Shown here piece by piece: positions 2,697 to 60,623 of a stretch of DNA of 64,000 nucleotides (position 1 is its first letter; each line of letters starts with the position of its first letter). The position numbers were made by a program, and so were the translations under genes. The notes under the pieces are model-generated. The model searched no databases. It worked only from the letters and a program-made list of their open reading frames with translations, and had not been told where the DNA came from. The DNA is from a virus. The DNA lies in IMG/VR virus record IMGVR_UViG_3300036791_001355, positions 11,506 to 75,505 of that record. The stretch is one strand, 5' to 3'.

Positions 2697-3002
2697 ATGG
2701 ACACCCGCAACCGGATCACCATTCACGACGTGGCCGCTGACCTGGGCCTCGAACTGAGCCACGCCCAGGCATGGCGCATCGGCGATGCCGTCAAGCGCAT
2801 CCACCGCTGGGATACCGGCGAGCTGCCGGTCAAGGACAACCGCACCAAGAAGGCCGGCACCGGCAGCCACTGCTTCGCGCTCTATCCCGACACCGCCGAA
2901 TGGCGCGAGCGCATCGCCCGCCAGATCCGCACCGTCAGGGCCGAGGAGCCAACCACGCAGACCGACCTGTTTGCTACTCCCCCATCCCCGTCTTCTGCTT
3001 GA
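2697..3002 (+). CDS. hypothetical protein (101 aa)
   Basis: AGGAG RBS; 3' end overlaps the portal stop convergently. Confidence 0.6.
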   Translation: MDTRNRITIHDVAADLGLELSHAQAWRIGDAVKRIHRWDTGELPVKDNRTKKAGTGSHCFALYPDTAEWRERIARQIRTVRAEEPTTQTDLFATPPSPSSA

Positions 3003-4551
3003 ACGGCATCACCTTGGGCTGCTTCTGACCACCGCCGCCGGGAGGCCCACCACCACCGCCAGGAGGGCCGCCAGGGCCGCCACCCGCACCACCCGGCCCA
3101 CCACCACCGCCCATGCCCATGCCGCCCTGCATGGCCTGCTCCTGCTGCTCCTGCTGCTTGGCGCCAAACTCCGCCAAGGCCTCGGTGTCGAGCACCAGCG
3201 GCACGCCGAACAGCAACTCGGTGTCGGCGATGTTGTCGCAGGCCCAGTCCAGCACGCGCGCCTTGTTCTCCGGGTCCATGTTGGGCAGGAACGTCTCCAC
3301 CACGCCGATGATGGCCCGCAGCTTGACGTCGTCGGTCTTGACCCGCTCGCTCTCGGGCTCGATCAAGAGACTGGGCCACGAGGCGATGAAATCATTCTGC
3401 CACCGGCTCATGGCCGCCTCGTACGTCATCTTGCCGTACTGGTCCGGGTAGGTCTGCTGCATGCGCTGGAAGAACTCCCGGTTCCACGCCCGGTGCTGCA
3501 CGATGCGGTCGAGGAACTCGTAGGTCGGGTGCATCTCCTCGCGGAAGCGCTCGATATACCGCGCGATGTTCTTGGCATCCTCCGAGCCCTCGCCGAAGCC
3601 GGACACCAAAGTCTCGTTCTCCAGCAGCACCGCCGGCATGTCCGCCGCCGTGGCGAGGTTCTTGAGGATGTTGGTGCGCGCGAACGTCCCCGCCCCGTCG
3701 ATGTTCTGCATGTTCAGCGTCTCGATGTTTTCCTCCACGTCGATGCTGAGCACGTTGTCGGTCTGCGCCTGCTTCAAGAGCGAGCGCTTCATGCTGGCGA
3801 TGCCCACCATGACGCGGTCAATGATGCTGCCGGGGCTCTTCATCTTGGCGATCAGCACGCCCGCCTTGCGGGTGATCATGTCGTCGGTGCGCATCGATTG
3901 GATGAAGCTCTTGAGCGGGAACAGCGAGCGCTGATACACGCTCCGCCCGACATAGCCGAAGGCCGACGAGGTGAAAGCGATGTAGACCGGCTCCTCGTTC
4001 ATGATCACGCACACCCGCGAGCGGTGATAGGTCTGCCCCTGGGTGGTGATCACCGTGGTCTTCTGGAACTCGGGCGAGTTGGGATCTTGGCTGAGAATCA
4101 GCGACCCCGCCGTATTGAGCGGATCGAGCACGTTGAAATAGAGTTCTTCGTCGGCATAGCGCTCGGGCGGGATCACCTCGGTGGAGGGGATGCCCACGGC
4201 GCCGACGACGATGCTGGCGATGCCGTAGGCGCGAGCGAGACGGTGGCCGCTGTGGATGATGCGGTCGGCGTGAATCGCCCCCCACTGGCGCTCGAAGGCT
4301 TCGTGGACGTCGGGCGGCGCGCCCGCCACCTCGATCTTGCGTTTCTGCGACTGCGCCAGGGTGATCGGCGCCTCCACCATCTTCGCCCCCAGCGGGTGGT
4401 AGAGCAGGATGGTCTTGCACAGTTGGTAGCTGGGATCGGAGCCGGGCACGATGTCGTCGGCGGTGAGCATCTCTAAGAGCGCCGAACCCATGCTGGAGGT
4501 GCTGAGCGTGAGCATGGCGCCGGTCGGCTCGGGGCCTGAACTGCCTGACAT
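2974..4551 (-). CDS. portal protein (DUF1073 family)
   Basis: 525 aa; YHRSR, FGYVGRSVYQR, ATAADMPAVLL...GFGEG motifs; downstream of TerL; Gln/Gly/Pro-rich C-tail. Confidence 0.85.
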   Translation of the reverse strand: MSGSSGPEPTGAMLTLSTSSMGSALLEMLTADDIVPGSDPSYQLCKTILLYHPLGAKMVEAPITLAQSQKRKIEVAGAPPDVHEAFERQWGAIHADRIIHSGHRLARAYGIASIVVGAVGIPSTEVIPPERYADEELYFNVLDPLNTAGSLILSQDPNSPEFQKTTVITTQGQTYHRSRVCVIMNEEPVYIAFTSSAFGYVGRSVYQRSLFPLKSFIQSMRTDDMITRKAGVLIAKMKSPGSIIDRVMVGIASMKRSLLKQAQTDNVLSIDVEENIETLNMQNIDGAGTFARTNILKNLATAADMPAVLLENETLVSGFGEGSEDAKNIARYIERFREEMHPTYEFLDRIVQHRAWNREFFQRMQQTYPDQYGKMTYEAAMSRWQNDFIASWPSLLIEPESERVKTDDVKLRAIIGVVETFLPNMDPENKARVLDWACDNIADTELLFGVPLVLDTEALAEFGAKQQEQQEQAMQGGMGMGGGGGPGGAGGGPGGPPGGGGGPPGGGGQKQPKVMPFKQKTGMGE

Positions 4552-4708
4552 TCAGCACTCCTCGGAAGCCTTCGAGCGACCCTTTGAAAAAGCTCCGCGC
4601 GTCCTACGCCTTTGCACGGGGACGGGAGAGGGCGCGCGGAGAGGTGCATGGAAGAGGAACCCTGCACAGATGACCGCCTGCGCACACGCGGATGCGCGCC
4701 AGGAGTCC

Positions 4709-4729
4709 GGTCACGCAAGTTGCGTGACC
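4709..4729. promoter_or_regulatory. perfect palindrome GGTCACGCAA-G-TTGCGTGACC upstream of the portal gene
   Basis: 10-bp arms with a 1-nt centre, in the intergenic gap. Confidence 0.5.
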
Positions 4730-4745
4730 CGTGGCGCGAATTGGG

Positions 4746-5951
4746 TTAGCGACCGGGCGGCAGTCCCACCACGGTGCCGTTGCCATCGACGACGGGCGTC
4801 TGGCCGTGCCACTCGCAGTCAGGGCCGAAGGTCAGCACGCCGCCCTGTAGTTGAATGAACGTATCATTACAGTCGAGCTGCATGACGGTGCCGGTAACCA
4901 CGTTGTTGTCGAGCAAGCCCTTGTCCTGATATTCCAGCCCGTAACTGATGACGCGGCGATTGGGCGAGTTCGCCGGCTTGGCCAGGGTCGCGTTCCTGAC
5001 CTCCAAGAGGCCGCCGTTGCAGCAGTCGATCAGGGAAGCTGTCGAGTTCCGCATGGTGCCGCCATCGACATAAGCGTGCCACGCCCGCGACTTGAGCGAG
5101 TAGCCCTCGGTCGGATCGACGCTGTCGGTGTTCTTCAGTCGTACTGCGTAACCATCACCGACATAGATGTTGTGGGTGTAGCCATCGCCAAGACCGTTAT
5201 GCTCTAGCAAGCAATTCACGATGGTGATGTCCCACATCGGCCCGTTATCGGCGGCGACGCCGTTCTGATTGTTGCTGAAGTGACAACCCTCGACGGTGCC
5301 GTAGCCGGCGGCATCGCAACGTACCGCCGCCACCAGCGTATGGCTCTGCTCGCGAATGCCGGCGCCGCTGATGGTAAAGCCCTTGATGTGCCATGCCGGG
5401 GTCGAGGCGACAATCGCCGCCTTGCCCTGATAAACCAGTTCACTAACCGGAACATCACTGAAATCCCAACGAACGCCGGTGCCATCGAGCAGCAAGTTCT
5501 TGTAGATCACGAACGATTCGCGCGGGGTCGCGGGCGGCACGACGACAGTGTCGCCGTCCACCGCCGCGTCAATCGCCTGTCCCACCGTGGTGTAGGGCTG
5601 CCCCACCGTCAGCGTGCGCCCCGAACTGCCGGGTGCCACCGCAGGCAGCGACGGGGCCGGCGGCGCGCCGGGGTTGGCACCCGATGATGGCGGCTCGACC
5701 GGCGGTTGCTCCACGGGCGGCTGCTCAATGGGGGGCTGTTCGCCCCCGCCGATGTCGAGCGGAGCGCTGAAACTGGCCACCACGCCGTTGTCAAACGTGA
5801 CCGTGCCCGCCAGGGTCGGCACCTGTGCCGCCGCGCCCTGGGCCACTTCCTTGATGGTGGTATCAAATAACCCCGTCACGCCATCCGTCAGCGTCAACGT
5901 GCCAGAGAGTCGCGCCGTGGTAGTCGCCAGCGGTTTGGGTGGCTTGGCCAT
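4746..5951 (-). CDS. right-handed beta-helix (pectin-lyase-like) protein with Pro-rich linker
   Basis: TVGQAIDAAVDGDTVVV, NNQNG, NGLGDGYTHNIYVG, LKSRA; start chosen at ATG 5951 after CAGGAG. Confidence 0.7.
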   Translation of the reverse strand: MAKPPKPLATTTARLSGTLTLTDGVTGLFDTTIKEVAQGAAAQVPTLAGTVTFDNGVVASFSAPLDIGGGEQPPIEQPPVEQPPVEPPSSGANPGAPPAPSLPAVAPGSSGRTLTVGQPYTTVGQAIDAAVDGDTVVVPPATPRESFVIYKNLLLDGTGVRWDFSDVPVSELVYQGKAAIVASTPAWHIKGFTISGAGIREQSHTLVAAVRCDAAGYGTVEGCHFSNNQNGVAADNGPMWDITIVNCLLEHNGLGDGYTHNIYVGDGYAVRLKNTDSVDPTEGYSLKSRAWHAYVDGGTMRNSTASLIDCCNGGLLEVRNATLAKPANSPNRRVISYGLEYQDKGLLDNNVVTGTVMQLDCNDTFIQLQGGVLTFGPDCEWHGQTPVVDGNGTVVGLPPGR

Positions 5952-6058
5952 CGCTTTCTCCTGTGGGTTTGGTTCCACCATCCGAGGCACGGCATGATGG
6001 CCAGGGGTCACCCCCTTCGTGGCTGACCGATGCCGCCGCTTACCCATGGGAGAACGCC

Positions 6059-6343
6059 ATGATCACCCTCACCGTTGCGGGCGAGTTCACCCCCCTGGAG
6101 CTAGCCGCATTCCTCTGCCTGATCCAGGGTCTGGACCGCGCCCGCAGAGAAGACAAGCACTGGAGCGTGAATGTTGACGACGCCGACGGCGCCACGGTAC
6201 GCGAGGCCGAGGCGCTGCTGCGTCAGACCCCGCCGCCCGCCGTCGATGCCCACGAAGCCATGGTGCGCATCACCGCTGCCGGCGAGGTCGCTCGAAACCT
6301 CGCTCCCGAGGTTCGCACCCACCCCAACAAAGGAGGACACTGA
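6059..6343 (+). CDS. hypothetical protein
   Basis: GGGAG RBS then MITLTVAGEF; C-terminus contains a copy of the 24-nt element. Confidence 0.55.
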   Translation: MITLTVAGEFTPLELAAFLCLIQGLDRARREDKHWSVNVDDADGATVREAEALLRQTPPPAVDAHEAMVRITAAGEVARNLAPEVRTHPNKGGH

Positions 6344-6541
6344 ATGGCCCGCCTGCTGGCCTGGATCAGCATCGACGGCAACAGCGCCCTGGCCTGCTAC
6401 CTCAGCGAGACCGCCCAGGAGCGCCAGCCCGCGACCCAGTGGTTCCCCACCGCCGCCGCCGCCAAAGCCTGGATTCAGCACGAGGCAGCGCGGCTCAAGG
6501 TCGGCATCGCTTGGCTGGATCGTCACACCCGGCGCGGTTGA
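6344..6541 (+). CDS. hypothetical protein (65 aa)
   Basis: AGGAGG RBS, abuts the previous stop. Confidence 0.6.
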   Translation: MARLLAWISIDGNSALACYLSETAQERQPATQWFPTAAAAKAWIQHEAARLKVGIAWLDRHTRRG

Positions 6542-6738
6542 TCGCCGTCTTCCTCCAGCAGGGTCAGGCTGACCCAGTGGCCCGAGGCAAAGGCCCGCCG
6601 CAGATAGTGCCCGTCATCGTAGAGCAGCAGCGCGCCGCCGCCGCAGCACTCCACCATATGCGCCTCGATCACCTCGTGGACGGTGCCCCTATTCTCCGTG
6701 GTGGCCCCCCAGTGCGGCAGTTCCACCCGGTAGCGCAT
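6523..6738 (-). CDS. hypothetical protein (71 aa)
   Basis: tightly packed with minus-strand neighbours. Confidence 0.5.
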   Translation of the reverse strand: MRYRVELPHWGATTENRGTVHEVIEAHMVECCGGGALLLYDDGHYLRRAFASGHWVSLTLLEEDGDQPRRV

Positions 6739-6740
6739 GG

Positions 6741-6983
6741 CTATGGCCGGTGCCGGTCGGGGAAAATGACGTAGACCATATCGCCCCAGAGCGCCCCCAT
6801 ATTTCCCCGCGAGGGCGTCCAGACCAGCCGCGATGGCGCGTCCGCCATCGCCTCGCTGAAGCTGTAGAAGATTACCGCCCCGCGCCCCCTGCCCCAGATG
6901 TGTCGGCCGTGCTTGTTGAGCGTCCGATAGTAAAGCGGGCCGTTCTCGCGCAGCCGAGTCAGCACGAAGCGCCCCGCATTCAT
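6741..6983 (-). CDS. hypothetical protein (80 aa)
   Basis: ATGA overlap with the upstream ORF. Confidence 0.5.
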   Translation of the reverse strand: MNAGRFVLTRLRENGPLYYRTLNKHGRHIWGRGRGAVIFYSFSEAMADAPSRLVWTPSRGNMGALWGDMVYVIFPDRHRP

Positions 6984-7303
6984 GGTGTCCCCAGCACGTA
7001 GGTCAGGAAGTCCCGCAGCAGCTTGATGTCTTCGCGATCCAGCTGCACCCCCATGGTGCAGTGATAGGCCTCTTCCGGGCCGCTGATTTCCATATGGCTG
7101 GCAATGAGCGACAGGGTGCAGCCGCCTTCTTCGATGTCGCAGCTGAGCGACATCTCCCGGTCGTCCACATCAAACAGCGTCGCGCTGTCCCAGTTGCCCT
7201 TGGCATCGGCTGCAGGAGCGCGCTTGCGCACGTCCGCATTGCCTGACAACGGACACAAAGTGACGTGGCTGGTCAGATAAGCCAGGAACTCCTTCCCTGC
7301 CAT
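6980..7303 (-). CDS. hypothetical protein (MAGKEFLAYL...)
   Basis: ATG directly after the tandem array; true start uncertain. Confidence 0.5.
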   Translation of the reverse strand: MAGKEFLAYLTSHVTLCPLSGNADVRKRAPAADAKGNWDSATLFDVDDREMSLSCDIEEGGCTLSLIASHMEISGPEEAYHCTMGVQLDREDIKLLRDFLTYVLGTP

Positions 7304-7304
7304 C

Positions 7305-7424
7305 AAGTCGCTCGCAGCCTCGCTCCTGAAGTCGCTCGCAGCCTCGCTCCTGAAGTCGCTCGCAGCCTCGCTCCTGAAGTCGCTCGCAGCCTCGCTCCTG
7401 AAGTCGCTCGCAGCCTCGCTCCTG
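7305..7424 (+). repeat. tandem array, 5 x 24 bp (AAGTCGCTCGCAGCCTCGCTCCTG)
   Basis: five identical units read directly, no spacers; fills the gap between the TerL stop and the next ATG. Confidence 0.95.
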
Positions 7425-7427
7425 AGA

Positions 7428-8765
7428 TCAGAAGCCTTTGTTGTCGCCCAGCGCCATGGCCACGCCATAGGTGAAGCAGTCGAGCAGGTCATCGGCGCCT
7501 GAGTCCACGCCCACCCGATAGCCCACCACCTGGGCCAGCAGATGGTTCCGCGTCGTCGCCTTGTAGGTGATCACCCGGTCATAGGCGGGCTGGCTGATTT
7601 TCACCTTGCCCTGGTGCACGTAGCCGCTGACGTTGATGGCCCGCCCGTCCTTGCCCACCTTGGTCAGGTCGCTCTCGATAGGGTGCGCCCGCCAGCCGCG
7701 CCGCCGCGCCTGCTGCAGCAGGATAGTGCCGCTGTTCTTGTCCTCGATCCACGCCCCCAGGGCGCCCATGCGCGCCCGGCACTGCTTGGCCAGTTCCTCC
7801 ATGCGCTGATAGATGCCCGGCAGCCACTGCTCCAGCAGGCTGCCCTCGATCTGCACAATGTCCCAGTCGAGGATGAGCAGCGGAATGCCGAAATGACGTG
7901 ACACGCCCCAGTAGATGACGGCGGTGCCGTCGTGCTCGCTGTGGTCCTTCACGGCGGTGTCGATGGTGACGAAGATGCCATCGCAGATGGCGGGGTAGGC
8001 GGGCGCCTTGTTGTCGACCAAGAGCGAGGTCTGGGCAAAGAAGGCCGCGCCCGACCAGTCGACGAACTTGGCCTCGTACTCCTGCTCGAACACCAGCGGG
8101 TGAGTGCGCGCGCGTAAGGCCTCGATCTCGTCCTGCGGCAAATAGGGGTTATTGGCCGAGGGCGCCCAGTACTCGACAAAGCCCCACTCCTCGGGCTCAT
8201 TGCACAGGCGCCAGAAGAAGTTCTCGCTATCCAGCCCGTTGGTGTTGGAGGCGGCCAGCGCGGTGCCTTTGTAATCCAGCAGGGTCGGCTCGATGCTCTT
8301 GCGCCAGACATCGGTCATGAACGGCTTGCAGAAGGCCGCCTCGTCGACGATCACCTTGTGGTAGCGGCGGCTTCTGCCGGCGCGCTCGTTATCCAAGCTC
8401 CAGAAGTCAATCCTGCCCCCGGTCGTGGTGCGAATCACCCCGTCCATGCGGTTGGAGCGCAAGATGACCGGGCCGAGGCGCTCGACCACATCGGTGTAGG
8501 CCTCGGAGAGGAATTTATACTCCGGGGCAAACCAGCCGACGTACTCGCCGCGTATGGCGGCATCGCAGGCGATGGTCTCGCACAGCAGCGTCTTGCCCCA
8601 GCGCCGGCCGCAGCGGATCGCCTTGTGCCGCCCGGGCATGCGATAGGCCTTGAGTTGGTCGGCATGGAGCGTGGGCAGTTCCACCTCGACCTCGCGGGCA
8701 CTGTCGGGGCCGCGCCTGGGCGGCAGGTGTACGCGCTGCTCACTCTGCGGGTGGGTCTGCTCCAT
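7428..8765 (-). CDS. terL: terminase large subunit
   Basis: Walker A CGRRWGKT, Walker B VIVDEAA, FEQEYEAKF, nuclease acidic motifs IDTA, IEDK, DDLLD. Confidence 0.93.
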   Translation of the reverse strand: MEQTHPQSEQRVHLPPRRGPDSAREVEVELPTLHADQLKAYRMPGRHKAIRCGRRWGKTLLCETIACDAAIRGEYVGWFAPEYKFLSEAYTDVVERLGPVILRSNRMDGVIRTTTGGRIDFWSLDNERAGRSRRYHKVIVDEAAFCKPFMTDVWRKSIEPTLLDYKGTALAASNTNGLDSENFFWRLCNEPEEWGFVEYWAPSANNPYLPQDEIEALRARTHPLVFEQEYEAKFVDWSGAAFFAQTSLLVDNKAPAYPAICDGIFVTIDTAVKDHSEHDGTAVIYWGVSRHFGIPLLILDWDIVQIEGSLLEQWLPGIYQRMEELAKQCRARMGALGAWIEDKNSGTILLQQARRRGWRAHPIESDLTKVGKDGRAINVSGYVHQGKVKISQPAYDRVITYKATTRNHLLAQVVGYRVGVDSGADDLLDCFTYGVAMALGDNKGF

Positions 8766-9297
8766 CCGGCTCCCTGTGGTCGCTCGAAGGCTCGCTCCCG
8801 TGGTCCTCGCCGTTGGGTTCCGGCTTGGCGTCGATCACCTGCGGCAGGCCGCCCCGGATCAGGATAGTGGTGCCGCCGCCGTTGGCGTAGGTCTCGTCAT
8901 CCCGTGGCGGGCGCCACTCCGGGCCACCCTTGCAGAAGAGCCAGTATTTCTGCGCCGCCACGTTGCCGCCGAGGGCGGAGCGCACGACAGCGGTGGAGAT
9001 GCGGGCCTTGACCTCATCGAAGGCGTTGGCGAGGTCGCGGTGATAGTGCCGTTCAAGGCTCTGCTCGGTGATGCCCATGACAAGAGCGATGATGCGGTTG
9101 GTATTGCCGTTGGCGCGGAGGACTTGAACGGCGCGACGCTGTTCGTCGGTAGGTTTGAACTTCTTGCGTCCAGCGTTTTTACGAGCCCCGCCTGAATTAG
9201 CTCGTGGGCCACCGCGTCTCGATTTGGGTTTGGCAGGCGGGACGGGCTCGAACTCTGGCAGTACGGGTTGAATAGGCTCGTCGTCGCCGTCGGCCAT
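8740..9297 (-). CDS. terS: terminase small subunit
   Basis: RGGPRANSGGARKNAGRK then an HTH-like segment, GNVAAQKYWL; directly upstream of TerL. Confidence 0.8.
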   Translation of the reverse strand: MADGDDEPIQPVLPEFEPVPPAKPKSRRGGPRANSGGARKNAGRKKFKPTDEQRRAVQVLRANGNTNRIIALVMGITEQSLERHYHRDLANAFDEVKARISTAVVRSALGGNVAAQKYWLFCKGGPEWRPPRDDETYANGGGTTILIRGGLPQVIDAKPEPNGEDHGSEPSSDHREPDGADPPAE

Positions 9298-28029: not shown

Positions 28030-28316
28030 GCGCAGTGGTGACGGAGCTGCGCCACTGGCTCAATCAGGGCGTATGTCCGCCGCTGCAATTGGTGCGCTGC
28101 GCTGTCACCGAGATTGAGGCGCTGCGGCAAGAGTTAGAGCTTCGCAGCAGCGCCGAGTTCGTGGCGGCCAATGAATTGACGCAGGCCCGCGCCGAGGCGC
28201 TGGAGGAGGCGGCGAAGGTGTGCGAGCAGTTCAGCCCCGCTCACGGCGATGACAATTGGCGGCCTCAGTCCGAGAGATACGCCGCCGCCATTCGGGCGCT
28301 GAAGGAGAAGCCGTGA
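28026..28316 (+). CDS. hypothetical protein with EALEEAA...AAAIRALK tail
   Basis: ATGA overlap; C-terminus shared with the previous gene. Confidence 0.6.
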   Translation: MSAVVTELRHWLNQGVCPPLQLVRCAVTEIEALRQELELRSSAEFVAANELTQARAEALEEAAKVCEQFSPAHGDDNWRPQSERYAAAIRALKEKP

Positions 28317-28768
28317 TGCCGCGTCGCCGGGATCGCGCTGTCGGGTGGTGTGTCTATGTGCTGCTCGATCTGGCGGGCGTGCCCCGCTATGTCGGCATGA
28401 CCACCAATCTGGATCATCGCATCGCCCAGCATCGGCAGACTGGCGGTCGATTCAAACGATCCAGGCAATACCACCAAGATCTCGTAGCGTTTTGCAAGAA
28501 TGGTTTCCGGATCGGCGTGTTTGCGCGCGGATTGACTGAGGCAGAGGCAAGCAATTACGAAGAAATGCTGATCGACCTGTTTGGTAGAACGTGGGACGAG
28601 ACCGGATCTTTATATAACCGTGTAAAGGGAGGTAGATACGCCGGCGGCGCTTATGCTCCACTTTGTCCGCCGAGGGTTATTGATGACTGGCTGGCAGCCC
28701 CCGGCAATGCGGCTTGGGAGCTTGAACGTAAAAAGTATTTACACCAAGCCGGCAAGGAAACGGATTAA
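28316..28768 (+). CDS. GIY-YIG endonuclease
   Basis: VYVL...RYVGMT.NL..R..QH, E..LI, LYN..KGG; lower GC; TGATG coupling. Confidence 0.8.
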   Translation: MPRRRDRAVGWCVYVLLDLAGVPRYVGMTTNLDHRIAQHRQTGGRFKRSRQYHQDLVAFCKNGFRIGVFARGLTEAEASNYEEMLIDLFGRTWDETGSLYNRVKGGRYAGGAYAPLCPPRVIDDWLAAPGNAAWELERKKYLHQAGKETD

Positions 28769-28811
28769 CTCCTCTGGAATCAAACGGTTACATTTCGGAA
28801 CAGAAATTGCA
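28728..28811 (+). promoter_or_regulatory. sigma54-type promoter with IHF site and upstream palindrome
   Basis: GTAAA-N5-TTTAC (28728-28742); AATCAAACGGTTA matches WATCAANNNNTTR (28778-28790); TCGGAACAGAAATTGCA has GG-N10-GC (28797-28810). Confidence 0.7.
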
Positions 28812-28846
28812 TATGTGTCCCCGTGAACACAGAGGACCACACCGCC

Positions 28847-29497
28847 ATGAAACAGCTCCTTCTCGCCAGCGCCGTGACGCTGGCGATCCCGCTCGGCGCC
28901 GCTGCCGCGCCGAATGAGATCATCAACTTCGCCGGCCCGCTATCCAGCGACTTCATCGCCACCAACCCGACCAGCACCTCGACGGCGCTGTCGGTCAACA
29001 ACGTCAACGTCACCATCAGCGGCCTGTTCGGCAACCCGTCCGTGACCAGCGGGGTGATGAACCTCAGCGCGGTCAACACCGATGCGGCAACGAATGTGAC
29101 CGGATTTGCCATTCAGCACTACAATGGGAGTTTCAGCATCACCAACGGGGGTGCGGTTAACTACCTCTCGGGCACCTTCACCGACGCGGCATTCGGCGCC
29201 CTCGGCGGCGATGGATTGACGGTAAATGTAACAAATCCACCGGAGTCGTTAACATTGACTTCCAGCGTCATCCCGGCCAGCGACCTCGTGCCACCGACGG
29301 CGTTCGACCTTTCCATGAGCGCGGTCAACCCACCGTTGACGATTGCCAACGGCACCATCCAGGCATTCGCCGCCAGCTTCACGGGCGACGCCTCGGCTAA
29401 CGTGGCGACAGGAGTGCCCGAGCCGGCCTCGCTCGCCATCCTCGGCACCGGCCTGCTGGGCCTTGGCTTCGTCATGAGGAGGAACCATCGTGCGTAA
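28847..29497 (+). CDS. PEP-CTERM sorting domain protein
   Basis: signal peptide MKQLLLASAV...AAA; C-terminal VPEPASLAILGTGLLGLGFVMRRNHRA. Confidence 0.92.
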   Translation: MKQLLLASAVTLAIPLGAAAAPNEIINFAGPLSSDFIATNPTSTSTALSVNNVNVTISGLFGNPSVTSGVMNLSAVNTDAATNVTGFAIQHYNGSFSITNGGAVNYLSGTFTDAAFGALGGDGLTVNVTNPPESLTLTSSVIPASDLVPPTAFDLSMSAVNPPLTIANGTIQAFAASFTGDASANVATGVPEPASLAILGTGLLGLGFVMRRNHRA

Positions 29498-30125
29498 TCT
29501 TCTTCTCGGTACAGTCGTCCTGGCCGGTTTCGTCGGTCCAGCCTACGCGGCGGCCTCGCTCGGTCCCGACGCCGCCACCGAAGGCCTGACCTACACGCTG
29601 ACGGAAACCAGCACCTCCGGTCTGATGGCCAGTTTCGAACTACAGATTACCGGCGCCAACACCGCCAGTGACACAATTGGCGGCAGAACCGGAATAAACG
29701 CCATCGCCTTCACCAACCCGACCGGTGGCCTTGCTACTGCCGTGATGACCTCGCCGGCCGGCTACAACTTCGTCCCGGGCGGCCTGAACAGCACAGGATG
29801 CAACGGCAACGGTGGTTTCTTCTGCTTCGACAATTTAGCCATCCCGCCGACGCCCACTACTTTGGTCAGTGGCACGCAGACGCTCGATTTCACGGCGACG
29901 CTGAATGCCGGCGGCTCTTGGAGCGGCTACAGCCCCGATTTCAAGATCGACTGGGTGGGCCGGCAGAACAACTACAGCCTCGTTTCCGAGGCGATACCAG
30001 TTAATATGGGCGGTGGACCGCCGCCGCCTCCGCCTCCCCCGCCGCCGCCGATCCCGGAGCCGGCCTCGATGCTGGTGCTGGCGAGCGCGCTGGCAGCACT
30101 GGGGGTAATCCGTCGTCGCCGCTAA
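29490..30125 (+). CDS. PEP-CTERM sorting domain protein
   Basis: signal peptide MRNLLLG...PAYA; poly-Pro linker; IPEPASMLVLASALAALGVIRRRR. Confidence 0.92.
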   Translation: MRNLLLGTVVLAGFVGPAYAAASLGPDAATEGLTYTLTETSTSGLMASFELQITGANTASDTIGGRTGINAIAFTNPTGGLATAVMTSPAGYNFVPGGLNSTGCNGNGGFFCFDNLAIPPTPTTLVSGTQTLDFTATLNAGGSWSGYSPDFKIDWVGRQNNYSLVSEAIPVNMGGGPPPPPPPPPPPIPEPASMLVLASALAALGVIRRRR

Positions 30126-30169
30126 GGCGCAAACAACTCCTGGCTTAGCTCCTGTTTGCCAGGACACTC

Positions 30170-30203
30170 GGGGGGCGAAAGCCATGATCGCCCCCCTCTT
30201 TTT
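30170..30203 (+). terminator. intrinsic terminator after the PEP-CTERM genes
   Basis: GGGGGGCGA/TCGCCCCCC stem then TCTTTTT. Confidence 0.8.
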
Positions 30204-30216
30204 GCCGCTGGATAGC

Positions 30217-30244: not shown

Positions 30245-30517
30245 CTATTCCTTCGGCGGCAGCGGGCGGCTGGCGGCAATCAGCGCCAGGATCGCCGTCA
30301 GCAGTTCAGTCATGATCTCGCGCACATTGTTGCCGAGATTGCCGCACGCCCCGTCCGGCTGCGGCAGGTCAGACCGCGCCACGTAATTCCACACGCAGCC
30401 GACCACGGCGACCATCGTCTCGCCCATGGCGATGCAGACGACGACCGCCAGCAACAGGAAACAGGCACGGACGATATCGAACGGCCGCCTGGGCGGCGGC
30501 TCTCGCGGCTCCGTCAC
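30245..30517 (-). CDS. small two-TM membrane protein (holin candidate)
   Basis: two hydrophobic segments; last gene of the late operon. Confidence 0.5.
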   Translation of the reverse strand: MTEPREPPPRRPFDIVRACFLLLAVVVCIAMGETMVAVVGCVWNYVARSDLPQPDGACGNLGNNVREIMTELLTAILALIAASRPLPPKE

Positions 30518-30587
30518 GCGTCGTCAACGGGATCAGGCGGCAGAAGGGGTCACTGGCTGTCCCTCCTGCCGCTGCGGGCTTACTCCC

Positions 30588-31184
30588 TTACTTGCTGGGA
30601 GTCGGCACGCCAGGATGGCTCTCGCTCGGCACGATGGCCATCGCCCAGCCCGCCTCGGGTGTCCAGTAGGCGATGACGTCCCAGTTTTCCAGCGGCTTCG
30701 GATCTGGCTTGCCGCCCTCACCCGGGGGCAAGGCGATAGGATGCGTCGGGCGCGGCGGGTACACCACGGGCGGCAGCGGAATCACGATGGGATGCTCGGG
30801 CCTTGCGTCAGGCGGCCAGATTTCCGGCGGCAGGACAATCGGGTGAGATGGGTAGCCCGGCACGGCCGGGGGCGGAATGACTATCGGGTGCTCGGGGTGG
30901 ACCCCATCAATGAAACCGGGCGGCAGGACGATGGGATGGGTCGGAAACCCTGGAATATAGATGGGATGGGTCGGCACCCCGGGTGCCCCGCCGGGAGCAA
31001 TGGGATGCGCCGGATACGGCGGCAGGGAGCCTGGACCGCCCGAGATAACCGGCGGCCAGTAGATTGGGTGGGTCGGCGTCCCGCCGCCGCCGTCACCGCC
31101 ACCACCGGGCGGCAGGATCGGTCCCTGGTAGACTTCGGGGATATGAATCTTGCCGACGAAGACAGCATCCAATACTGGCATCAT
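30588..31184 (-). CDS. Pro-rich repeat protein (PxHPI repeats)
   Basis: eight PTHPI/PAHPI/PEHPI/PSHPI units; GGGAG RBS. Confidence 0.75.
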   Translation of the reverse strand: MMPVLDAVFVGKIHIPEVYQGPILPPGGGGDGGGGTPTHPIYWPPVISGGPGSLPPYPAHPIAPGGAPGVPTHPIYIPGFPTHPIVLPPGFIDGVHPEHPIVIPPPAVPGYPSHPIVLPPEIWPPDARPEHPIVIPLPPVVYPPRPTHPIALPPGEGGKPDPKPLENWDVIAYWTPEAGWAMAIVPSESHPGVPTPSK

Positions 31185-35702: not shown

Positions 35703-36029
35703 TTAGCTCCCTAGCTTGGCTTCCAGCGCCGCGATGCGCTGAATCAGCGGCTGCACCATGCCGTCGAGATAGGCTTTCGGCACCGCGTCGTAGGGCTCGA
35801 CCGGTGCCGTGCGGGGCAGCTTCAGCGGCTCGATCTGGCTGGGGTCGGGCAGGGTGGGAGGCGGCGGCGGATCGGGCACGTTGCCCTCGGCCAACCACGC
35901 CTCGTATTCGGCCCGGTCACGGTTAGCCGGATCGTTCGGGATGTGGGCCTGATCGGCGACGCGCAGGATGGTGTCCGAGACTTTCGTCGGGTCCATGCCG
36001 TCGCGAATCTGCTGGTAGGGTTGGGCCAT
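35703..36029 (-). CDS. tail-fibre-associated/assembly protein
   Basis: IPNDPANRDRAEYEAWLAEGNVPDP motif, typical downstream of fibre genes. Confidence 0.7.
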   Translation of the reverse strand: MAQPYQQIRDGMDPTKVSDTILRVADQAHIPNDPANRDRAEYEAWLAEGNVPDPPPPPTLPDPSQIEPLKLPRTAPVEPYDAVPKAYLDGMVQPLIQRIAALEAKLGS

Positions 36030-36030
36030 G

Positions 36031-37092
36031 TCAGATGTCCGCCGAGGCTGTAATGGTAAAATTCATACAGTTGTATCCAGCGGCATTAGCATTGGCTATC
36101 ACAGTCACGCCGCATCCAAGAGGCGTTAGGCTCACAAATGATGTTGGGCTACCTGTAGTGCCATAGTTGTTTAACATTACACACGTTGCACTAGCTCGCA
36201 TAGGCACCGGAAAATAGATACTGGAATATAGTTGCCCGCCCGCGGCAGCCGCATATAAACCGTTTACTGCTACCTGCGTAGGGCAATAAAACCGTTGGCA
36301 GCGTTGAAGGTCTGTCATCCAGTCAATTTTCTCCAACGGAGTCATTACATTTCCGACCTCAAGCTGCATACCCCAGAGTTGCACTACGCCGCTCTGCACG
36401 CCGATATTGCCAGCACTAGGACCGTTAGTGGTGCCGCTAGAGAAAAATATCTGAATTATCGTGAAGTCAGTACCGAGATTAGTGCCTAGCGTCTTCCCAA
36501 CTGTAGTCGGGATCGTCATTGTTACGCTGTAGCGAGCAGCGCTCGTGGTGATTGGCACGGCGGTGCCCGTGGGAGAAAACGAAACTGCGGTTGACGGTGA
36601 TCCTCCGGTGCCAAAAGACTGATAGCCATTGATGCCAAGCTTCAGGGCCGCGCCAGCCGACGCCAAGAAGCTCAGGGTCACGGTCTTGCCGCCAAGTCTG
36701 CGCACGTTCTCTATCGCGTGAACGATTTCATTGTATGCACCGGCTGCAGCATTGCCGGTGAAGGTATTCTGAAGAAGATATTGCACGGCGTCATCGCCAA
36801 CTACCGAACGCCAGCCATCAGTAGCTTGGATCAGATTAACGCTGGCCGTATCCGACGAGACATTCAGCGCCCACCGATCCGCCGTATAAGTCGCGGTCGT
36901 GGTCCACGGCCCAGCCCCACGTTGCTGGATATTGAAATACGGGTTATGCAGGAGGTTCCGTCCCGCATTATTAACGAACTGCGCCGCCGGGCTGCCACTA
37001 ACCCACTTCACCCCATCGTAGGTGTAGGTCAGCCCGTTGGAGCCGAGGACGGTCTGGCCGATGGTCAGCGGGGGATTGGGGAAATCGAACAT
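36031..37092 (-). CDS. putative receptor-binding/carbohydrate-binding tail protein, paralog 3
   Basis: GRNLLHNPYFNIQQRG..ADRW...GKTVTLSF...QLEVG...DLQRCQRF...ASADI. Confidence 0.7.
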   Translation of the reverse strand: MFDFPNPPLTIGQTVLGSNGLTYTYDGVKWVSGSPAAQFVNNAGRNLLHNPYFNIQQRGAGPWTTTATYTADRWALNVSSDTASVNLIQATDGWRSVVGDDAVQYLLQNTFTGNAAAGAYNEIVHAIENVRRLGGKTVTLSFLASAGAALKLGINGYQSFGTGGSPSTAVSFSPTGTAVPITTSAARYSVTMTIPTTVGKTLGTNLGTDFTIIQIFFSSGTTNGPSAGNIGVQSGVVQLWGMQLEVGNVMTPLEKIDWMTDLQRCQRFYCPTQVAVNGLYAAAAGGQLYSSIYFPVPMRASATCVMLNNYGTTGSPTSFVSLTPLGCGVTVIANANAAGYNCMNFTITASADI

Positions 37093-37095
37093 GGG

Positions 37096-38361
37096 TCAGA
37101 GGTCCGCCGACGCTGTCCAGTTAAATACGCCATAACCACCACCTGTCGCTGTGACAGCAACCACGCAAGTAAACCCAGTAACGTCGTTATCAGCCATCCT
37201 CGCCCCAGAACAATTCGAATAGGCTGGGGTGCCTATCACTGCCGTTGTTGGTGCTGCTCTCATCTGTACAGGAAGGCACCATGTGTTTCCTACCGTGCCT
37301 CCAGCCGAGCTGTTGCTGAAACAGACAACATACTTTCCTGTTTGGAAAAACCGTTGGCAGCGCTGAAGATCGAGCATCGGATCGATTTTCTCTAACGGCG
37401 TCATTACGGTGCCGACCTCACACTGGGCACCCCACAAGCTGACGGTACCGGACTGCACCCCAATATTGCCTGCGTTGTTCGCGTAGGTACTCCCGGAGGA
37501 TAGCCAGAACGCCACCTGCAAGTAGCTGTCATTGTTGGTGCCGTAGGTCATGCCAGCCGTGCTCGGGAGCGTGGCGGTCACGCTGTACCGCCGCCATGTC
37601 GTTGTGAGTGCGACCGGTGTTCCGGTGGGCCGGATCATTGCAGAGGGCGATCCGCCAGTACCAAAGAGCAGCAAATTGCCAACGCCCACTGACAGCGGCG
37701 TCGCGCTGCACATTGCCCAGAAACTGGTAGTGATCGTTTTGCCAGACAGACGATGAAGATTCTCTATCTGTTGGATTATCTGATGGTAATCGCCTGCGGC
37801 ACCAGTGCCGGTAAAGGTATCGACCACCTTATAGAGCGCTGCCTCATCGCCGATGGCGGCACGATCAGCATCGGTCATCGCGGTCAGGCTCATGCTGCCG
37901 CTACCGCCGCTCCACCCGATGCTCCAGCGATCAGCCGTAAATCCGGGCGTCGTGAAGGAAGTACCGCGCTGCTGAATATTAAAATATGGATTGTGCAGGG
38001 CATTCCTGCCGACGTTATAGCCGCTCTGCGCGCTGGTGACCCCGGTCACCCATTGCGCGTTCTGGCGCAGGTAGGCGTTGGCGTCCTGCGGTGCGTCGGC
38101 CAGCGTGCCCTGCGGGGTGGCGGGCACCCATTGCGAGCTGTTACCATCGTTGTAGTACAGCATCAGGGCCAGCCCGATGCTGTCCCACCAGAGCTGCCCG
38201 TTGGCCGGATTGGCGGGCGGGCTGTCGCCGACCGCCAGCGCGTTGCCGCCCGTCACCAGCCACTTGGTGCCGTCGTACAGCCAGGAGGTGGCGCCGTTCG
38301 GGCTGGTATAGGTCTGGCCAGTGGTGACCGGCGGGTCGGGGAAGTTGAGGGCGCCCGACAT
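37096..38361 (-). CDS. putative receptor-binding/carbohydrate-binding tail protein, paralog 2
   Basis: same core motifs plus LWWDS and ADAP N-terminal modules. Confidence 0.7.
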   Translation of the reverse strand: MSGALNFPDPPVTTGQTYTSPNGATSWLYDGTKWLVTGGNALAVGDSPPANPANGQLWWDSIGLALMLYYNDGNSSQWVPATPQGTLADAPQDANAYLRQNAQWVTGVTSAQSGYNVGRNALHNPYFNIQQRGTSFTTPGFTADRWSIGWSGGSGSMSLTAMTDADRAAIGDEAALYKVVDTFTGTGAAGDYHQIIQQIENLHRLSGKTITTSFWAMCSATPLSVGVGNLLLFGTGGSPSAMIRPTGTPVALTTTWRRYSVTATLPSTAGMTYGTNNDSYLQVAFWLSSGSTYANNAGNIGVQSGTVSLWGAQCEVGTVMTPLEKIDPMLDLQRCQRFFQTGKYVVCFSNSSAGGTVGNTWCLPVQMRAAPTTAVIGTPAYSNCSGARMADNDVTGFTCVVAVTATGGGYGVFNWTASADL

Positions 38362-39638
38362 CAGAGATCGGCCGAGGCTGTATAGCCAGAGGTAACTTGC
38401 CCCCCTCCAGTAGCGGTAAAGGTAAACCAGTAACCAATACCGTTGGCATCGAGAGCCGCTGTAGCGAGGGCCGAACCGTTGGTATAAGCGATGTTGTAAA
38501 GCCCCACAGTGGGTGCGGCTCGCATTGGAACGGGAAACAACATACGACTAGCGGGGCCTTGGCCGGCAACGTGATAGCCCGCTAAATAGATTGCACCAAC
38601 CTGATAAAAGCGTTGGCAGCGCTGAAGGTCAGTCATGGGGTCAATTTTCTCTAGCGGGGTCATTACGTTTCCGACCTCGATCTGGACTCCCCAGAGGTTG
38701 ATGGCGCCGGATTGGACGCCGACGTTGCCGGCACGAGTAGCGAGAGCCGAACCGGCAGTTGGCCAAAAGTTAAAATTCGTATAGTCATTGGCATTCGTGC
38801 CAAGTGTCATACCCGCCGCACTCGGCAATGAAAGCGTCAATGAGTAGCGGGCAAATGCCGTTGTCATTGTCACCGCTTGCCCAGAACCAAGGACGCTGGA
38901 GGACGGCGAGCCGCCAGTGCCGAAACTCTGATCTAATGAGACACCTAATTTCAGTCCCGCTGATGATGCGATAGCCCAGAATGACACCGTGACCGTCTTG
39001 CCAGCCAGTCGCCTCACTCCTTCGATACGTTCAGAGAAGTAAGCATGATCACTGGCGCCGGACGTTCCAGTGAACTGGATACCGGCGACGTTGGTGCAAC
39101 TCTCATCACCGATTTGCGAACGATTGGCGTCGGTTGCGACGTTCTGTGTCACAGACATTGACGCGCCCGTGCCATAGAAGCCCATCACCCAACGGTCCAT
39201 GGTGTAAGCACCACTCACCGTCCAGTTTCCCGACCCGCGCTGAGCGACGTTGAAATATGGGTTCTGGATGACATTGCGACCAACGTTGTCCGCCACTGCT
39301 GGGAGCGTCGCTACCTGGGTCCACGCTGCCGCGCGCCGGGCATAGGCATAGGCATCGTTGGGCGCGTCGGCCATGCCGCCGGTCAGCTGGTTGACCGCCA
39401 CCACCCACTGTTTCGAGGTGCCATCGTCGATGTAGACGAAAAGCTGGCCCGACACGGTATCCCACCACTCGTTTCCATTGCTCGGGTTGGCTGGAGGGGT
39501 GGCCCCGACGGTGATGCTGGCGCTGCCGCCGCTACCCCCGCCGGTGATCGGCATCCACTTGATGCCGTCGTACAGCCACGACGCGCCGCCGCCGGTAAAG
39601 ACGGTGTTGACCGGCGGATTGGCGGGGAAGTCCAGCAT
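38361..39638 (-). CDS. putative receptor-binding/carbohydrate-binding tail protein, paralog 1
   Basis: same core motifs plus WWDT and ADAP N-terminal modules. Confidence 0.7.
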   Translation of the reverse strand: MLDFPANPPVNTVFTGGGASWLYDGIKWMPITGGGSGGSASITVGATPPANPSNGNEWWDTVSGQLFVYIDDGTSKQWVVAVNQLTGGMADAPNDAYAYARRAAAWTQVATLPAVADNVGRNVIQNPYFNVAQRGSGNWTVSGAYTMDRWVMGFYGTGASMSVTQNVATDANRSQIGDESCTNVAGIQFTGTSGASDHAYFSERIEGVRRLAGKTVTVSFWAIASSAGLKLGVSLDQSFGTGGSPSSSVLGSGQAVTMTTAFARYSLTLSLPSAAGMTLGTNANDYTNFNFWPTAGSALATRAGNVGVQSGAINLWGVQIEVGNVMTPLEKIDPMTDLQRCQRFYQVGAIYLAGYHVAGQGPASRMLFPVPMRAAPTVGLYNIAYTNGSALATAALDANGIGYWFTFTATGGGQVTSGYTASADL

Positions 39639-60129: not shown

Positions 60130-60623
60130 GCCGTCTCTCTCTCGATGACGAAAAACCGGTCCCCGTCATTGGCGGCATCGCCGGCACCGTTGCGGTAGCG
60201 GATGACGCGCTCGTGCACCGGCTGTCCCGTCCACTGGTCGGCCACCAGCAGGCCATCCTCGCCGACCGCCAGCAGCACGGCGGCATGCGAGCGGCCATCG
60301 ACGTGGTTGCCGTAGCGGCCATCGGCATCGAAGCAGGCGATGGCGGTGCCTCTGGCCAGCGTCGGCGTGTCCGCCACCCTGGCCCCGCGTCGCCAGTGGG
60401 TCGTCATCGGCGCGTCGGTCACCGAGCGGACGAAGGCGACACAGTGACCGCTGCCGATGCGTCGGCCCAGGCAGTGCTCATGAGCGGCGGCGACGAAGGT
60501 CACTCGAAGTCTCGCTCCCGAGGTCACTCGAAGTCTCGCTCCCGAGGTCACTCGAAGTCTCGCTCCCGAGGTCACTCGAAGTCTCGCTCCCGAGGTCACT
60601 CGAAGTCTCGCTCCCGAGGTCAT
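60126..60623 (-). CDS. BPSL0067-like Cys/His peptidoglycan amidase (endolysin candidate)
   Basis: GHCVAFVR...W.RG.RV...GTAIA.FD.DGRY.N...SHAA...V.DQW; N-terminus is the in-frame repeat (SGARLRVT)x5. Confidence 0.75.
   Translation of the reverse strand: MTSGARLRVTSGARLRVTSGARLRVTSGARLRVTSGARLRVTFVAAAHEHCLGRRIGSGHCVAFVRSVTDAPMTTHWRRGARVADTPTLARGTAIACFDADGRYGNHVDGRSHAAVLLAVGEDGLLVADQWTGQPVHERVIRYRNGAGDAANDGDRFFVIERETA
60497..60622 (+). repeat. tandem array, 5 x 24 bp plus 6 bp (AGGTCACTCGAAGTCTCGCTCCCG)
   Basis: five identical units read directly; 19/24 identical to the unit at 7305. Confidence 0.95.

Follow-up and report, generated by a model that had tools for sequence, protein, structure and literature searches.

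Bacteria of soils and biofilms commonly have PEP-CTERM proteins. Phage genomes, for their part, can carry morons, i.e., accessory genes that lie between phage modules and bring a promoter and a terminator of their own, such as bor and lom of phage lambda; the classic morons have sigma70 promoters and belong to temperate phages. Floc formation in activated-sludge bacteria needs PEP-CTERM proteins together with exopolysaccharide, according to work cited in the available text of two reports (PMC9012009, PMC9850573), and in Aquincola, expression of pepA depends on RpoN and its start site has been mapped (PMC9850573). The available text of Haft 2006 (PMC1569441) describes a cis-region of PEP-CTERM genes that consists of a 17-nt motif ending in TTTACA, a spacer of 62.8 ± 10.6 nt (range 32–92), and a −24 GG/−12 GC element at least 23 nt before the gene, with the motif confined to Proteobacteria that have PrsK, PrsR, and PrsT. 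Among mobile elements, the IME1 virus-like elements of Dehalococcoides encode a PEP-CTERM-domain protein, as stated in the accessible part of a preprint (bioRxiv 10.64898/2026.09.15.751708). In the literature searched, we found no previous description of exosortase substrates encoded by a virus, nor of a phage gene that had been tied to an enhancer-binding-protein regulon of its host.

Here, we describe a 1.5-kb locus with two PEP-CTERM genes in a near-complete myovirus record, a linear metagenome assembly of 75.5 kb (CheckV ~80% complete). Coordinates refer to the window, i.e., the whole stretch of 64,000 nt that was analysed (Table 1). We consider it reasonably likely that this soil myovirus carries the two genes as an accessory cassette (moron) wired to the enhancer/sigma54 PEP-CTERM regulon of its host. 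A proteobacterial host is the probable source, from which the cassette would have been captured complete with its control region and its terminator. The large terminase shares at most 49% identity with any GenBank phage, and for the tail sheath, neither 301 Acetobacteraceae-family genomes (best 44%) nor 301 Steroidobacteraceae-family genomes yielded a close relative. No RNA dataset containing the stretch is listed, and the sole sequencing run that contains it is the probable source soil metagenome.

Table 1. Features of the PEP-CTERM cassette and its edges (positions in the window)
Feature	Coordinates	Strand	Basis or detail
GIY-YIG endonuclease gene	28256..28768	+	PF01541 30.3 bits, cut-off 22.6
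PrsR-box-like 17-mer CGTAAAAAGTATTTACA, near-perfect palindrome, proposed enhancer (upstream activator site)	28727..28743	.	PWM
IHF core consensus WATCAANNNNTTR (AATCAAACGGTTA), exact, predicted site between box and promoter	28778..28790	+	Motif match
Sigma54-type −24/−12 element CGGAACAGAAATTGCA	28796..28811	+	GG 28797–28798, GC 28809–28810, GG-N10-GC
ORF1 ribosome-binding site GAGGA	28832..28836	+	Read from sequence; 10 nt before ATG 28847
ORF1, 216 aa: signal peptide, beta-barrel domain, PEP-CTERM tail	28847..29497	+	HMMs, alignment A1, AlphaFold model
ORF2 ribosome-binding site AGGAGG	29477..29482	+	Inside ORF1 end; 7 nt before GTG 29490
ORF2, 211 aa: signal peptide, beta-sandwich domain, PEP-CTERM tail	29490..30125	+	HMMs, alignment A2, AlphaFold model
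Intrinsic terminator of operon	30170..30204	+	G+C stem 9 bp 30170–30178/30188–30196, loop 9 nt, then UCUUUUU
Terminator of convergent minus-strand phage genes	30220..30246	−	11-pair stem then TTTTG

The operon is phage-borne, as the preliminary description had it, and this is supported by phage genes on both sides and by the placement of head and tail genes at opposite ends of the record. Upstream lie Mu Gam-like, Erf, and GIY-YIG genes, the last of which is the final gene of the upstream phage operon and overlaps the PrsR-like box with its 3′ end; downstream lies a convergent tail module, the terminator of which forms the other edge of the cassette. Given that the record was assembled from a metagenome as a linear sequence of incomplete length and that the G+C content drops to 0.61 in 28–30 kb compared with ~0.65 in the flanks, host DNA might have been joined to the phage contig through misassembly or at a prophage boundary, but this is scarcely credible for a segment of such small size that lies ~40 kb inside the record with phage genes immediately on either side. 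Moreover, 43 IMG/VR contigs carry a member of the ORF1 family, compared with 3 of 185,579 species genomes and none of the GenBank phages, and the IMG/VR members adjoin portal, terminase, and capsid/head genes, which also argues against a joint with host DNA; in the contigs of the species genomes, ORF1 as query found no relative and alignment A1 as query found the three. The homologue of the closest viral relative among the loci compared (L001, 87% identity) sits between two genes that are also present in this phage, a further point against such a joint.

Two secreted PEP-CTERM proteins followed by a terminator had been proposed for this locus, and both ORFs, their tails, and the terminator were recovered. 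The ORFs overlap by 8 nt and are translationally coupled, and the terminator region (30126–30212) folds at −39.4 kcal/mol with a z-score of −3.4. The tail of ORF1 is recognised by both PEP-CTERM models (TIGR02595 24.5 bits, cut-off 16; PF07589 24.5 bits, cut-off 20.7), and that of ORF2 reaches TIGR02595 exactly at its cut-off (16.0 bits) but falls slightly below the cut-off of PF07589 with 20.4 bits. A six-frame search of the genome returned these two tails, at 26.1 and 20.5 bits, and no others in the record. Sec signal peptides were assigned by inspection only, as MKQLLLASAVTLAIPLGAAAA/P in ORF1 (end AAA/AP) and MRNLLLGTVVLAGFVGPAYA/A in ORF2 (end AYA/A), and the N-termini are conserved in the family alignments of both ORF1 (A1) and ORF2 (A2). 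The ORF1 family has the invariant motif LSGTFTDAAFG, and ORF2 contains a run of 11 prolines. The AlphaFold models have pLDDT values of 76 (ORF1) and 86 (ORF2); Foldseek found no PDB match for the ORF1 model, and VIA-align returned common small beta-barrels only, with Z ~8. On the flocculation model floc_PepA (NF033554, cut-off 80 bits), ORF1 scores 39.8 bits in a weak match over residues 40–213 and ORF2 scores 11.4 bits, so that ORF1 is not a PepA equivalog. Neither an exosortase (PF09721) nor a sigma54 activator/bEBP (PF00158) was matched anywhere in the 75.5-kb record, which extends to the whole record what had been noted for the window.

The DNA upstream of ORF1 contains a PrsR-box-like palindrome, an IHF consensus, and a −24/−12 element in the order and with the spacing of the bacterial PEP-CTERM regulon. 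All three had been pointed out in the preliminary description, and all three are present. The palindrome GTAAAAAGTATTTAC (28728–28742), within the 3′-terminal part of the GIY-YIG ORF, was found once against 0.06 expected. The exact IHF match is the sole one in the window (0.33 expected), with its core ending just 6 nt before the −24 element. The GG-N10-GC element agrees with 9 of 12 consensus positions; it reads GGAAC, not GGCAC, at −24 and keeps TTGCA on the −12 side, and it predicts a transcription start near 28822. The distances from the box to this element (52 nt) and from the element to the ATG (35 nt) are both inside the ranges published in the available text of Haft 2006 (PMC1569441).

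The exact palindrome GTAAA-N5-TTTAC, which the preliminary description would have compared with host PEP-CTERM genes, was rejected as the host box: it was not enriched in three homologue-carrying MAGs (13 forward matches compared with 38 for the control in MAG G002), so that the box of the host differs from it. For this reason, the box was re-derived from bacterial PepA-like loci. A sigma54 promoter at 9–12 of 12 positions precedes 19 of the 22 bacterial PepA-like genes, and 14 of those genes also have a box TGTC[GA]-N7-TTTACA located 62–105 nt upstream of the promoter, which gives the regulon layout TGTC[GA]-N7-TTTACA, spacer 62–105 nt, TGGCAC-N5-YTGCW for these 14 loci. Position weight matrices (PWMs) were trained solely on the bacterial sites, and the box and promoter scores were combined. 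With this composite, the site upstream of ORF1 ranks first on both strands of the 75.5-kb genome with 26.4 bits (next independent site 18.1), which is consistent with the predicted PEP-CTERM control region of sigma54/PrsR type. Taken separately, the box scores 15.6 bits on the plus strand and 16.3 on the minus strand and is the only site of at least 15.6 bits on either strand of the genome; it can be regarded as a variant of the PrsR box, albeit a weak one that scores lower than all training sites (21.4–30.4 bits). Its TTTACA is exact, its 5′ half reads CGTA compared with TGTC in the bacterial sites, and position 4 is A where 14/14 bacterial sites have C; as a whole, it forms a near-perfect palindrome of the half-site that is better conserved. 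The −24/−12 element scores 10.8 bits, below all 19 training promoters (14.2–21.4 bits).

Taken singly, the elements are not all above chance, and the combination is. The three elements could be read as a chance constellation in an A+T-richer gap, with the operon using another, unrecognised promoter: sigma54-like sites are by themselves at chance level (TGGCACG-N4-TTGCW with 3 mismatches occurs 96 times in the window against 128 expected), an exact IHF consensus is present somewhere in 27 of 100 shuffles of the window, and the palindrome was chosen post hoc. This reading is nevertheless very improbable, as the independently trained composite was unmatched in 40 shuffled genomes (shuffled maximum 24.8 bits), has a rate of 3.5e-7 per nt in random sequence of the local composition, and would be expected 5e-5 times within 150 nt upstream of one gene, and as the same layout recurs upstream of homologues.

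At E ≤ 0.001, 201 homologues of ORF1 and 122 of ORF2 were retrieved, the closest being P0002 (87%), P0004 (76%), and P0005 (72%) for ORF1 and P0121 (91%) for ORF2. A pattern scan of IMG/VR found no relative of ORF2, and an ORF scan of viral loci found second PEP-CTERM genes beside ORF1 homologues. Of the 48 non-redundant regions that lie upstream of ORF1 homologues, 11 contain a box of at least 15 bits, mostly those with a second PEP-CTERM gene. The box/IHF/sigma54 layout recurs before homologous two-gene cassettes in soil contigs; soil contig L075 has a box, an exact IHF site, and TGGCATGGGGCTTGCA, together 42 bits, and the exact IHF consensus falls in the equivalent interval of 2 of 11 loci (including L075) against 0.019 expected. 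The survey of related viral contigs envisaged in the preliminary description thus recovered the layout in some cassettes, but most viral homologues lack the control region with its box, IHF, and sigma54 elements. A strict IMG/VR pattern of the canonical box with a TGGCAC promoter gave one site, a chance hit within a coding region. The conserved TTGCAAGG before some homologues was considered as a −12 box and ruled out because its distance to a GG is variable. The 433-aa neighbour gene family c4 has no sequence match in Pfam, PHROG, or the PDB. On the bacterial side, MAG G002 (Acetobacteraceae) carries a homologous cassette together with an exosortase (154.6 bits), PrsR (628.8 bits, cut-off 502.6), and PrsK (578.9 bits, cut-off 300), and a host PEP-CTERM gene in the Acetobacteraceae MAG reaches 34.9 bits with the bacterial-trained PWMs.

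No terminator lies between the GIY-YIG stop (28768) and ORF1, so that transcripts of the upstream phage operon may read through. The absence of a sigma70-like promoter from the 78-nt gap before ORF1 fits both read-through and the sigma54 control that we favour. Both genes might therefore be transcribed from the Gam/Erf/GIY-YIG operon during lytic infection, with the box, IHF site, and −24/−12 element persisting as a decaying host relic that controls nothing. We regard this as unlikely, even though it would accommodate the position of the box within a coding region, the scores of the box and −24 element under every bacterial training site, the many viral homologues that stand in line with packaging and head genes and lack the elements, and the upstream region of L001, which is different and has 0 of the 3 elements. 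Decay would be expected to erode the order and spacing of the elements, which are kept, and the critical features (TTTACA, the exact IHF core, GG-N10-GC, and TTGCA) are kept as well; a composite far beyond chance and a box in which the better-conserved half-site forms a near-perfect palindrome also speak against a relic.

If the cassette is instead wired to the host regulon, as we favour, it would rely on RpoN, IHF, PrsK/PrsR, and an exosortase from the host. Phosphorylated PrsR would bind the box, which lies ~87 nt before the predicted start; IHF would bend the DNA in between, and the sigma54 holoenzyme would initiate at the predicted start. The products of ORF1 and ORF2 would then be exported by the Sec system and held by their C-terminal helix until the host exosortase cleaves both proteins and passes them on to the cell surface or the exopolysaccharide matrix. 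With a host-regulated promoter and a host exosortase, the phage proteins would appear as the host switches on its own matrix program, and the phage may thus make both proteins only while its host builds slime. Candidate roles are matrix remodelling, polysaccharide adhesion, and receptor masking. The lysogenic or carrier state that the preliminary description associated with the cassette is unsupported: no tyrosine or serine recombinase (PF00589, PF00239) was matched in the record, which is ~80% complete, so that the absence of an integrase is not proven.

More tentatively, and with slightly less than even confidence, we propose a broader reading in which soil phages across lineages carry cassettes of exosortase substrates, the ORF1 family being mainly phage-carried. 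In the phage described here, such a cassette would be joined to the host's PrsR-box/IHF/sigma54 switch, so that matrix proteins are made on the host signal for exopolysaccharide or floc formation and sorted by the host exosortase. In the absence of its activator, a sigma54 promoter is silent, and a phage gene behind one would therefore be an unambiguous example of a virus that responds to one particular two-component signal of its host. If phages supply exosortase substrates of their own, the cohesion of infected cells or the exposure of receptors could change; this would, if true, matter for the stability of flocs in wastewater treatment and for the dynamics between phages and hosts in soil aggregates. 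The cis-motif may in addition give a clue to the host, given the Proteobacteria with PrsK, PrsR, and PrsT to which the available text of Haft 2006 assigns it (PMC1569441).

Compared with known systems, the locus shares with IME1 that a mobile virus-like element encodes a PEP-CTERM-annotated protein, although IME1 is integrative, resides in another host phylum, and comes with no sigma54/PrsR control or exosortase link in the accessible part of that report (bioRxiv 10.64898/2026.09.15.751708). The cis-region of Haft 2006, as far as the available text describes it (PMC1569441), is alike in the TTTACA-ending 17-mer, the spacer, the −24/−12 element, and the PEP-CTERM gene that follows; the present region differs in its 5′ half-box CGTA instead of TGTC, its −24 sequence GGAAC instead of GGCAC, and its exact IHF core in the spacer, an IHF site not being mentioned in that text. 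It further differs in preceding a two-gene operon where mostly single genes were described, and in lying in a phage genome with the box in the 3′ end of a phage gene. With pepA of Aquincola tertiaricarbonis and Zoogloea resiniphila (PMC9850573; NF033554), the locus has in common a small secreted PEP-CTERM protein, a sigma54 promoter, and an upstream enhancer, all of them predicted here, whereas ORF1 constitutes a family separate from this flocculation gene, marked by LSGTFTDAAFG and found mainly on viral and soil contigs. Unlike classic morons, the cassette has a promoter of a type that needs a host enhancer-binding protein, and it resides in a record without a detected integrase; like morons in general, it is self-contained, with control region, genes, and terminator together where convergent modules meet, and it shows lower G+C than its flanks, predicted envelope products, and movement between unrelated phage backbones.

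The two adjacent genes downstream of the GIY-YIG endonuclease ORF, ORF1 and ORF2, encode proteins with Sec signal peptides read at their N-termini and PEP-CTERM tails at their C-termini (VPEPASLAILGTGLLGLGFVMRRNHRA and IPEPASMLVLASALAALGVIRRRR, respectively). The ORF1 tail scored 24.5 bits with both TIGR02595 (cut-off 16) and PF07589 (cut-off 20.7), and that of ORF2 scored 16.0 bits, at the cut-off, with the former and 20.4 bits, just below it, with the latter; when all six frames of the 75.5-kb record were searched, no PEP-CTERM tail other than these two (26.1 and 20.5 bits) was found. ORF2 begins at a GTG, with AGGAGG 7 nt 5' of it, and shares 8 nt with the 3' end of ORF1; the two genes are therefore translationally coupled. 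The preliminary description, of two secreted proteins with PEP-CTERM tails, followed by a terminator and preceded by a palindrome, an IHF consensus and a -24/-12 element, is confirmed. Immediately ahead of its PEP motif, ORF2 has 11 consecutive prolines (29996-30055; 13 in the metagenome relative L050), which look like a rigid linker between domain and anchor.

Positions of the operon, its candidate control elements and other features in the window
Feature	Position	Strand	Detail
Small terminase, large terminase, portal	2974-9297		
PrsR-box-like enhancer candidate (box)	28727-28743		CGTAAAAAGTATTTACA, inside last codons of GIY-YIG ORF
-24/-12 element	28796-28811		CGGAACAGAAATTGCA
ORF1	28847-29497	+	216 aa
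ORF2	29490-30125	+	211 aa
Terminator 3' of operon	30170-30204	+	9-bp G+C stem, then UCUUUUU
Terminator of convergent genes	30246-30220	-	Second terminator

The 75.5-kb linear IMG/VR record, of which the window covers bases 11506-75505, is ~80% complete by CheckV. Same-strand genes upstream of the operon encode a Mu Gam-like protein, an Erf-like recombinase, small proteins and the GIY-YIG endonuclease, and minus-strand genes downstream encode tail fibres, baseplate and tail sheath. The operon stretch is phage DNA. Head genes, including that of a truncated major head protein, fill the left end of the record and tail genes lie at the opposite end, a distribution that suggests a nearly whole, permuted myovirus genome and not a prophage flanked by host DNA. 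Neither an exosortase nor a sigma54 activator was found across the whole record, as had been noted for the window, and the lysogenic or carrier state proposed earlier is not supported by this ~80% complete record, which has no tyrosine or serine recombinase. Directly downstream of the operon and convergent to it (30245-31184, minus strand) are genes for two proteins, one of 90 aa with hydrophobic stretches, judged by eye, and one of 198 aa that is rich in proline and repeats an HPI motif; in the viral contig L001 a homologue of the latter adjoins the ORF1 homologue, but upstream and on the same strand. Window positions 36000-39500 have lower G+C (0.55 in 36-38 kb vs ~0.65 elsewhere), and none of the ORFs there shows the high G+C at third codon positions that is typical of the phage's genes.

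According to Haft et al. 2006 (PMC1569441), proteobacterial PEP-CTERM genes are preceded first by a 17-nt motif ending in TTTACA, then by a spacer of 62.8 +/- 10.6 nt (range 32-92) and a sigma54 -24/-12 motif separated from the start codon by 23 nt or more, and the phylogenetic profile of the cis DNA motif matches that of PrsK, PrsR and PrsT. The window fits this architecture in element order and in both distances (52 nt from box to -24/-12 element, 35 nt from there to the ATG of ORF1). We rebuilt the motifs from 30 loci, found when the PepA model (NCBIfam NF033554) was run against 401 genomes of the class to which one MAG belongs. In these bacterial PepA-like loci the promoter scored 9-12 of 12 in 19 of 22 usable upstream regions, and the box TGTC[GA]-N7-TTTACA lay 62-105 nt upstream of it in 14. 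Position weight matrices were derived from the bacterial sites alone, and a composite was formed by adding the promoter score to that of the best box. The window site reached 26.4 bits (box 15.6, promoter 10.8), the top composite on both strands of the genome (next independent site, 18.1 bits) and a score attained by none of 40 shuffled genomes (maximum 24.8). Random sequence (20 Mb) matched to the local, A+T-richer composition gave a rate of 3.5e-7 per nt, so that ~5e-5 such sites are expected within 150 nt upstream of a single gene. A host PEP-CTERM gene of an Acetobacteraceae MAG, not used for training, served as positive control and scored 34.9 bits.

Taken singly, the elements of the preliminary description are weak evidence: CGGAACAGAAATTGCA has three mismatches to TGGCACG-N4-TTGCW, and matches of this quality number 96 in the window where 128 are expected; the exact IHF consensus is unique within the window, yet present in 27 of 100 shuffles. 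The box carries A at position 4 (C in 14/14 bacterial sites), the -24 element reads GGAAC instead of GGCAC, and box and promoter each score under all training sites. Its weak match might be offset by the near-perfect palindrome that the box forms from the better-conserved half-site. Only 6 nt separate the end of the IHF core from the -24 element, closer than in textbook sigma54 promoters. That the operon is expressed by read-through, or that the switch is a relic, is a serious rival to control by the host circuit.

The control region is not general among loci with ORF1 homologues. Of 48 non-redundant upstream regions, 11 had a PrsR-type box scoring 15 bits or more, mostly those of two-gene cassettes, and six upstream regions had composites at or above the shuffle maximum. 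The promoter halves of L004 and L045 are doubtful, lying just 12-13 nt before the start codon and overlapping TTGCAAGG at the ribosome site. The survey of related phages suggested in the preliminary description gave a divided picture: the layout recurs, with a full set in soil contig L075 (42 bits in total; reversed box TGTAAAGTTTTCCGACA, TGGCATGGGGCTTGCA and an exact IHF consensus), CATTGAT between two box-like sites in L083 and L084, and 2 of 11 loci in which the box is followed downstream by an exact IHF consensus (0.019 expected, P ~0.0002), whereas most relatives lack the elements, including L001, the closest readable viral one (87%), which has none of the three, lacks ORF2 and differs in gene order. 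Soil contigs L075 and L077 are nearly identical from sigma54 promoter to start codon; further upstream their boxes have opposite orientations and only L075 has the exact IHF site. In many ORF1 homologues the ribosome-binding site is overlapped by a conserved TTGCAAGG core (10-25 nt before the start; L004, L014, L045, L083, L084 and L038), which extends to the full palindrome CCTTGCAAGG in L045, L083 and L084 and is absent from the window; it could bind a protein or act as a hairpin in translational control.

The ORF1 family, with the invariant motif LSGTFTDAAFG (alignment A1), was found in 43 IMG/VR contigs (43-87% identity), 41 soil or rhizosphere metagenome loci, several being the same contigs, only 3 of 185,579 species genomes and none of 50,697 GenBank phage records. 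Its neighbours on other viral contigs include P22-like or SU10-like portals, large terminases, major head protein and primase, so the family has moved from one unrelated phage backbone to another. Among the three genome hits, one has an ordinary chromosomal setting beside lipoyl synthase, RsmB and acyl-CoA dehydrogenase genes; bacterial copies therefore exist. At many loci an ORF2-like PEP-CTERM gene precedes or follows the ORF1 homologue, and several protein hits of the ORF1 and ORF2 searches seem to come from the same contigs, since they agree in the length of their longest contig. An unannotated gene of 433 aa (4746-6047, minus strand, between large terminase and portal; family c4), without sequence match in Pfam, PHROG or PDB, has homologues that directly adjoin the gene of the ORF1 family in 19 other loci, among them L001, L014, L027, L045 and L071.

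An Acetobacteraceae MAG (G002) carrying the homologous two-gene cassette L045 encodes PrsR (628.8 bits; cut-off 502.6), an adjacent PrsK (578.9 bits; cut-off 300), an exosortase (154.6 bits) and a host PEP-CTERM gene with canonical box and promoter upstream. It is the sole well-equipped example. A 211-nt stretch of L045 (9930-10139) matches the phage tail region (60141-60350) at 72.5% identity; a small ORF is common to both.

ORF1 is predicted to form a closed beta-barrel (pLDDT 76) with generic structural neighbours only (best Z 8.1); as a PepA equivalog it was ruled out (39.8 bits vs cut-off 80). For the predicted beta-sandwich of ORF2 (pLDDT 86), Foldseek returned weak matches to CBM2-type cellulose-/chitin-binding modules and cohesins, making polysaccharide binding a lead, not a finding.

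Sequence statistics and homologous cassettes support the core of the earlier proposal, though not its lysogeny: the phage cassette appears designed to exploit the circuit by which the host sorts and regulates such proteins. It was probably captured from a bacterial chromosome along with its switch, which only some phages seem to keep. Our literature search found no paper on phage-encoded exosortase substrates or on a phage gene under PrsR/sigma54 control. A PEP-CTERM domain is noted in a virus-like element of Dehalococcoides in a preprint of 2026 (bioRxiv 10.64898/2026.09.15.751708), and RpoN dependence has been shown experimentally for a bacterial PEP-CTERM gene (PMC9850573).
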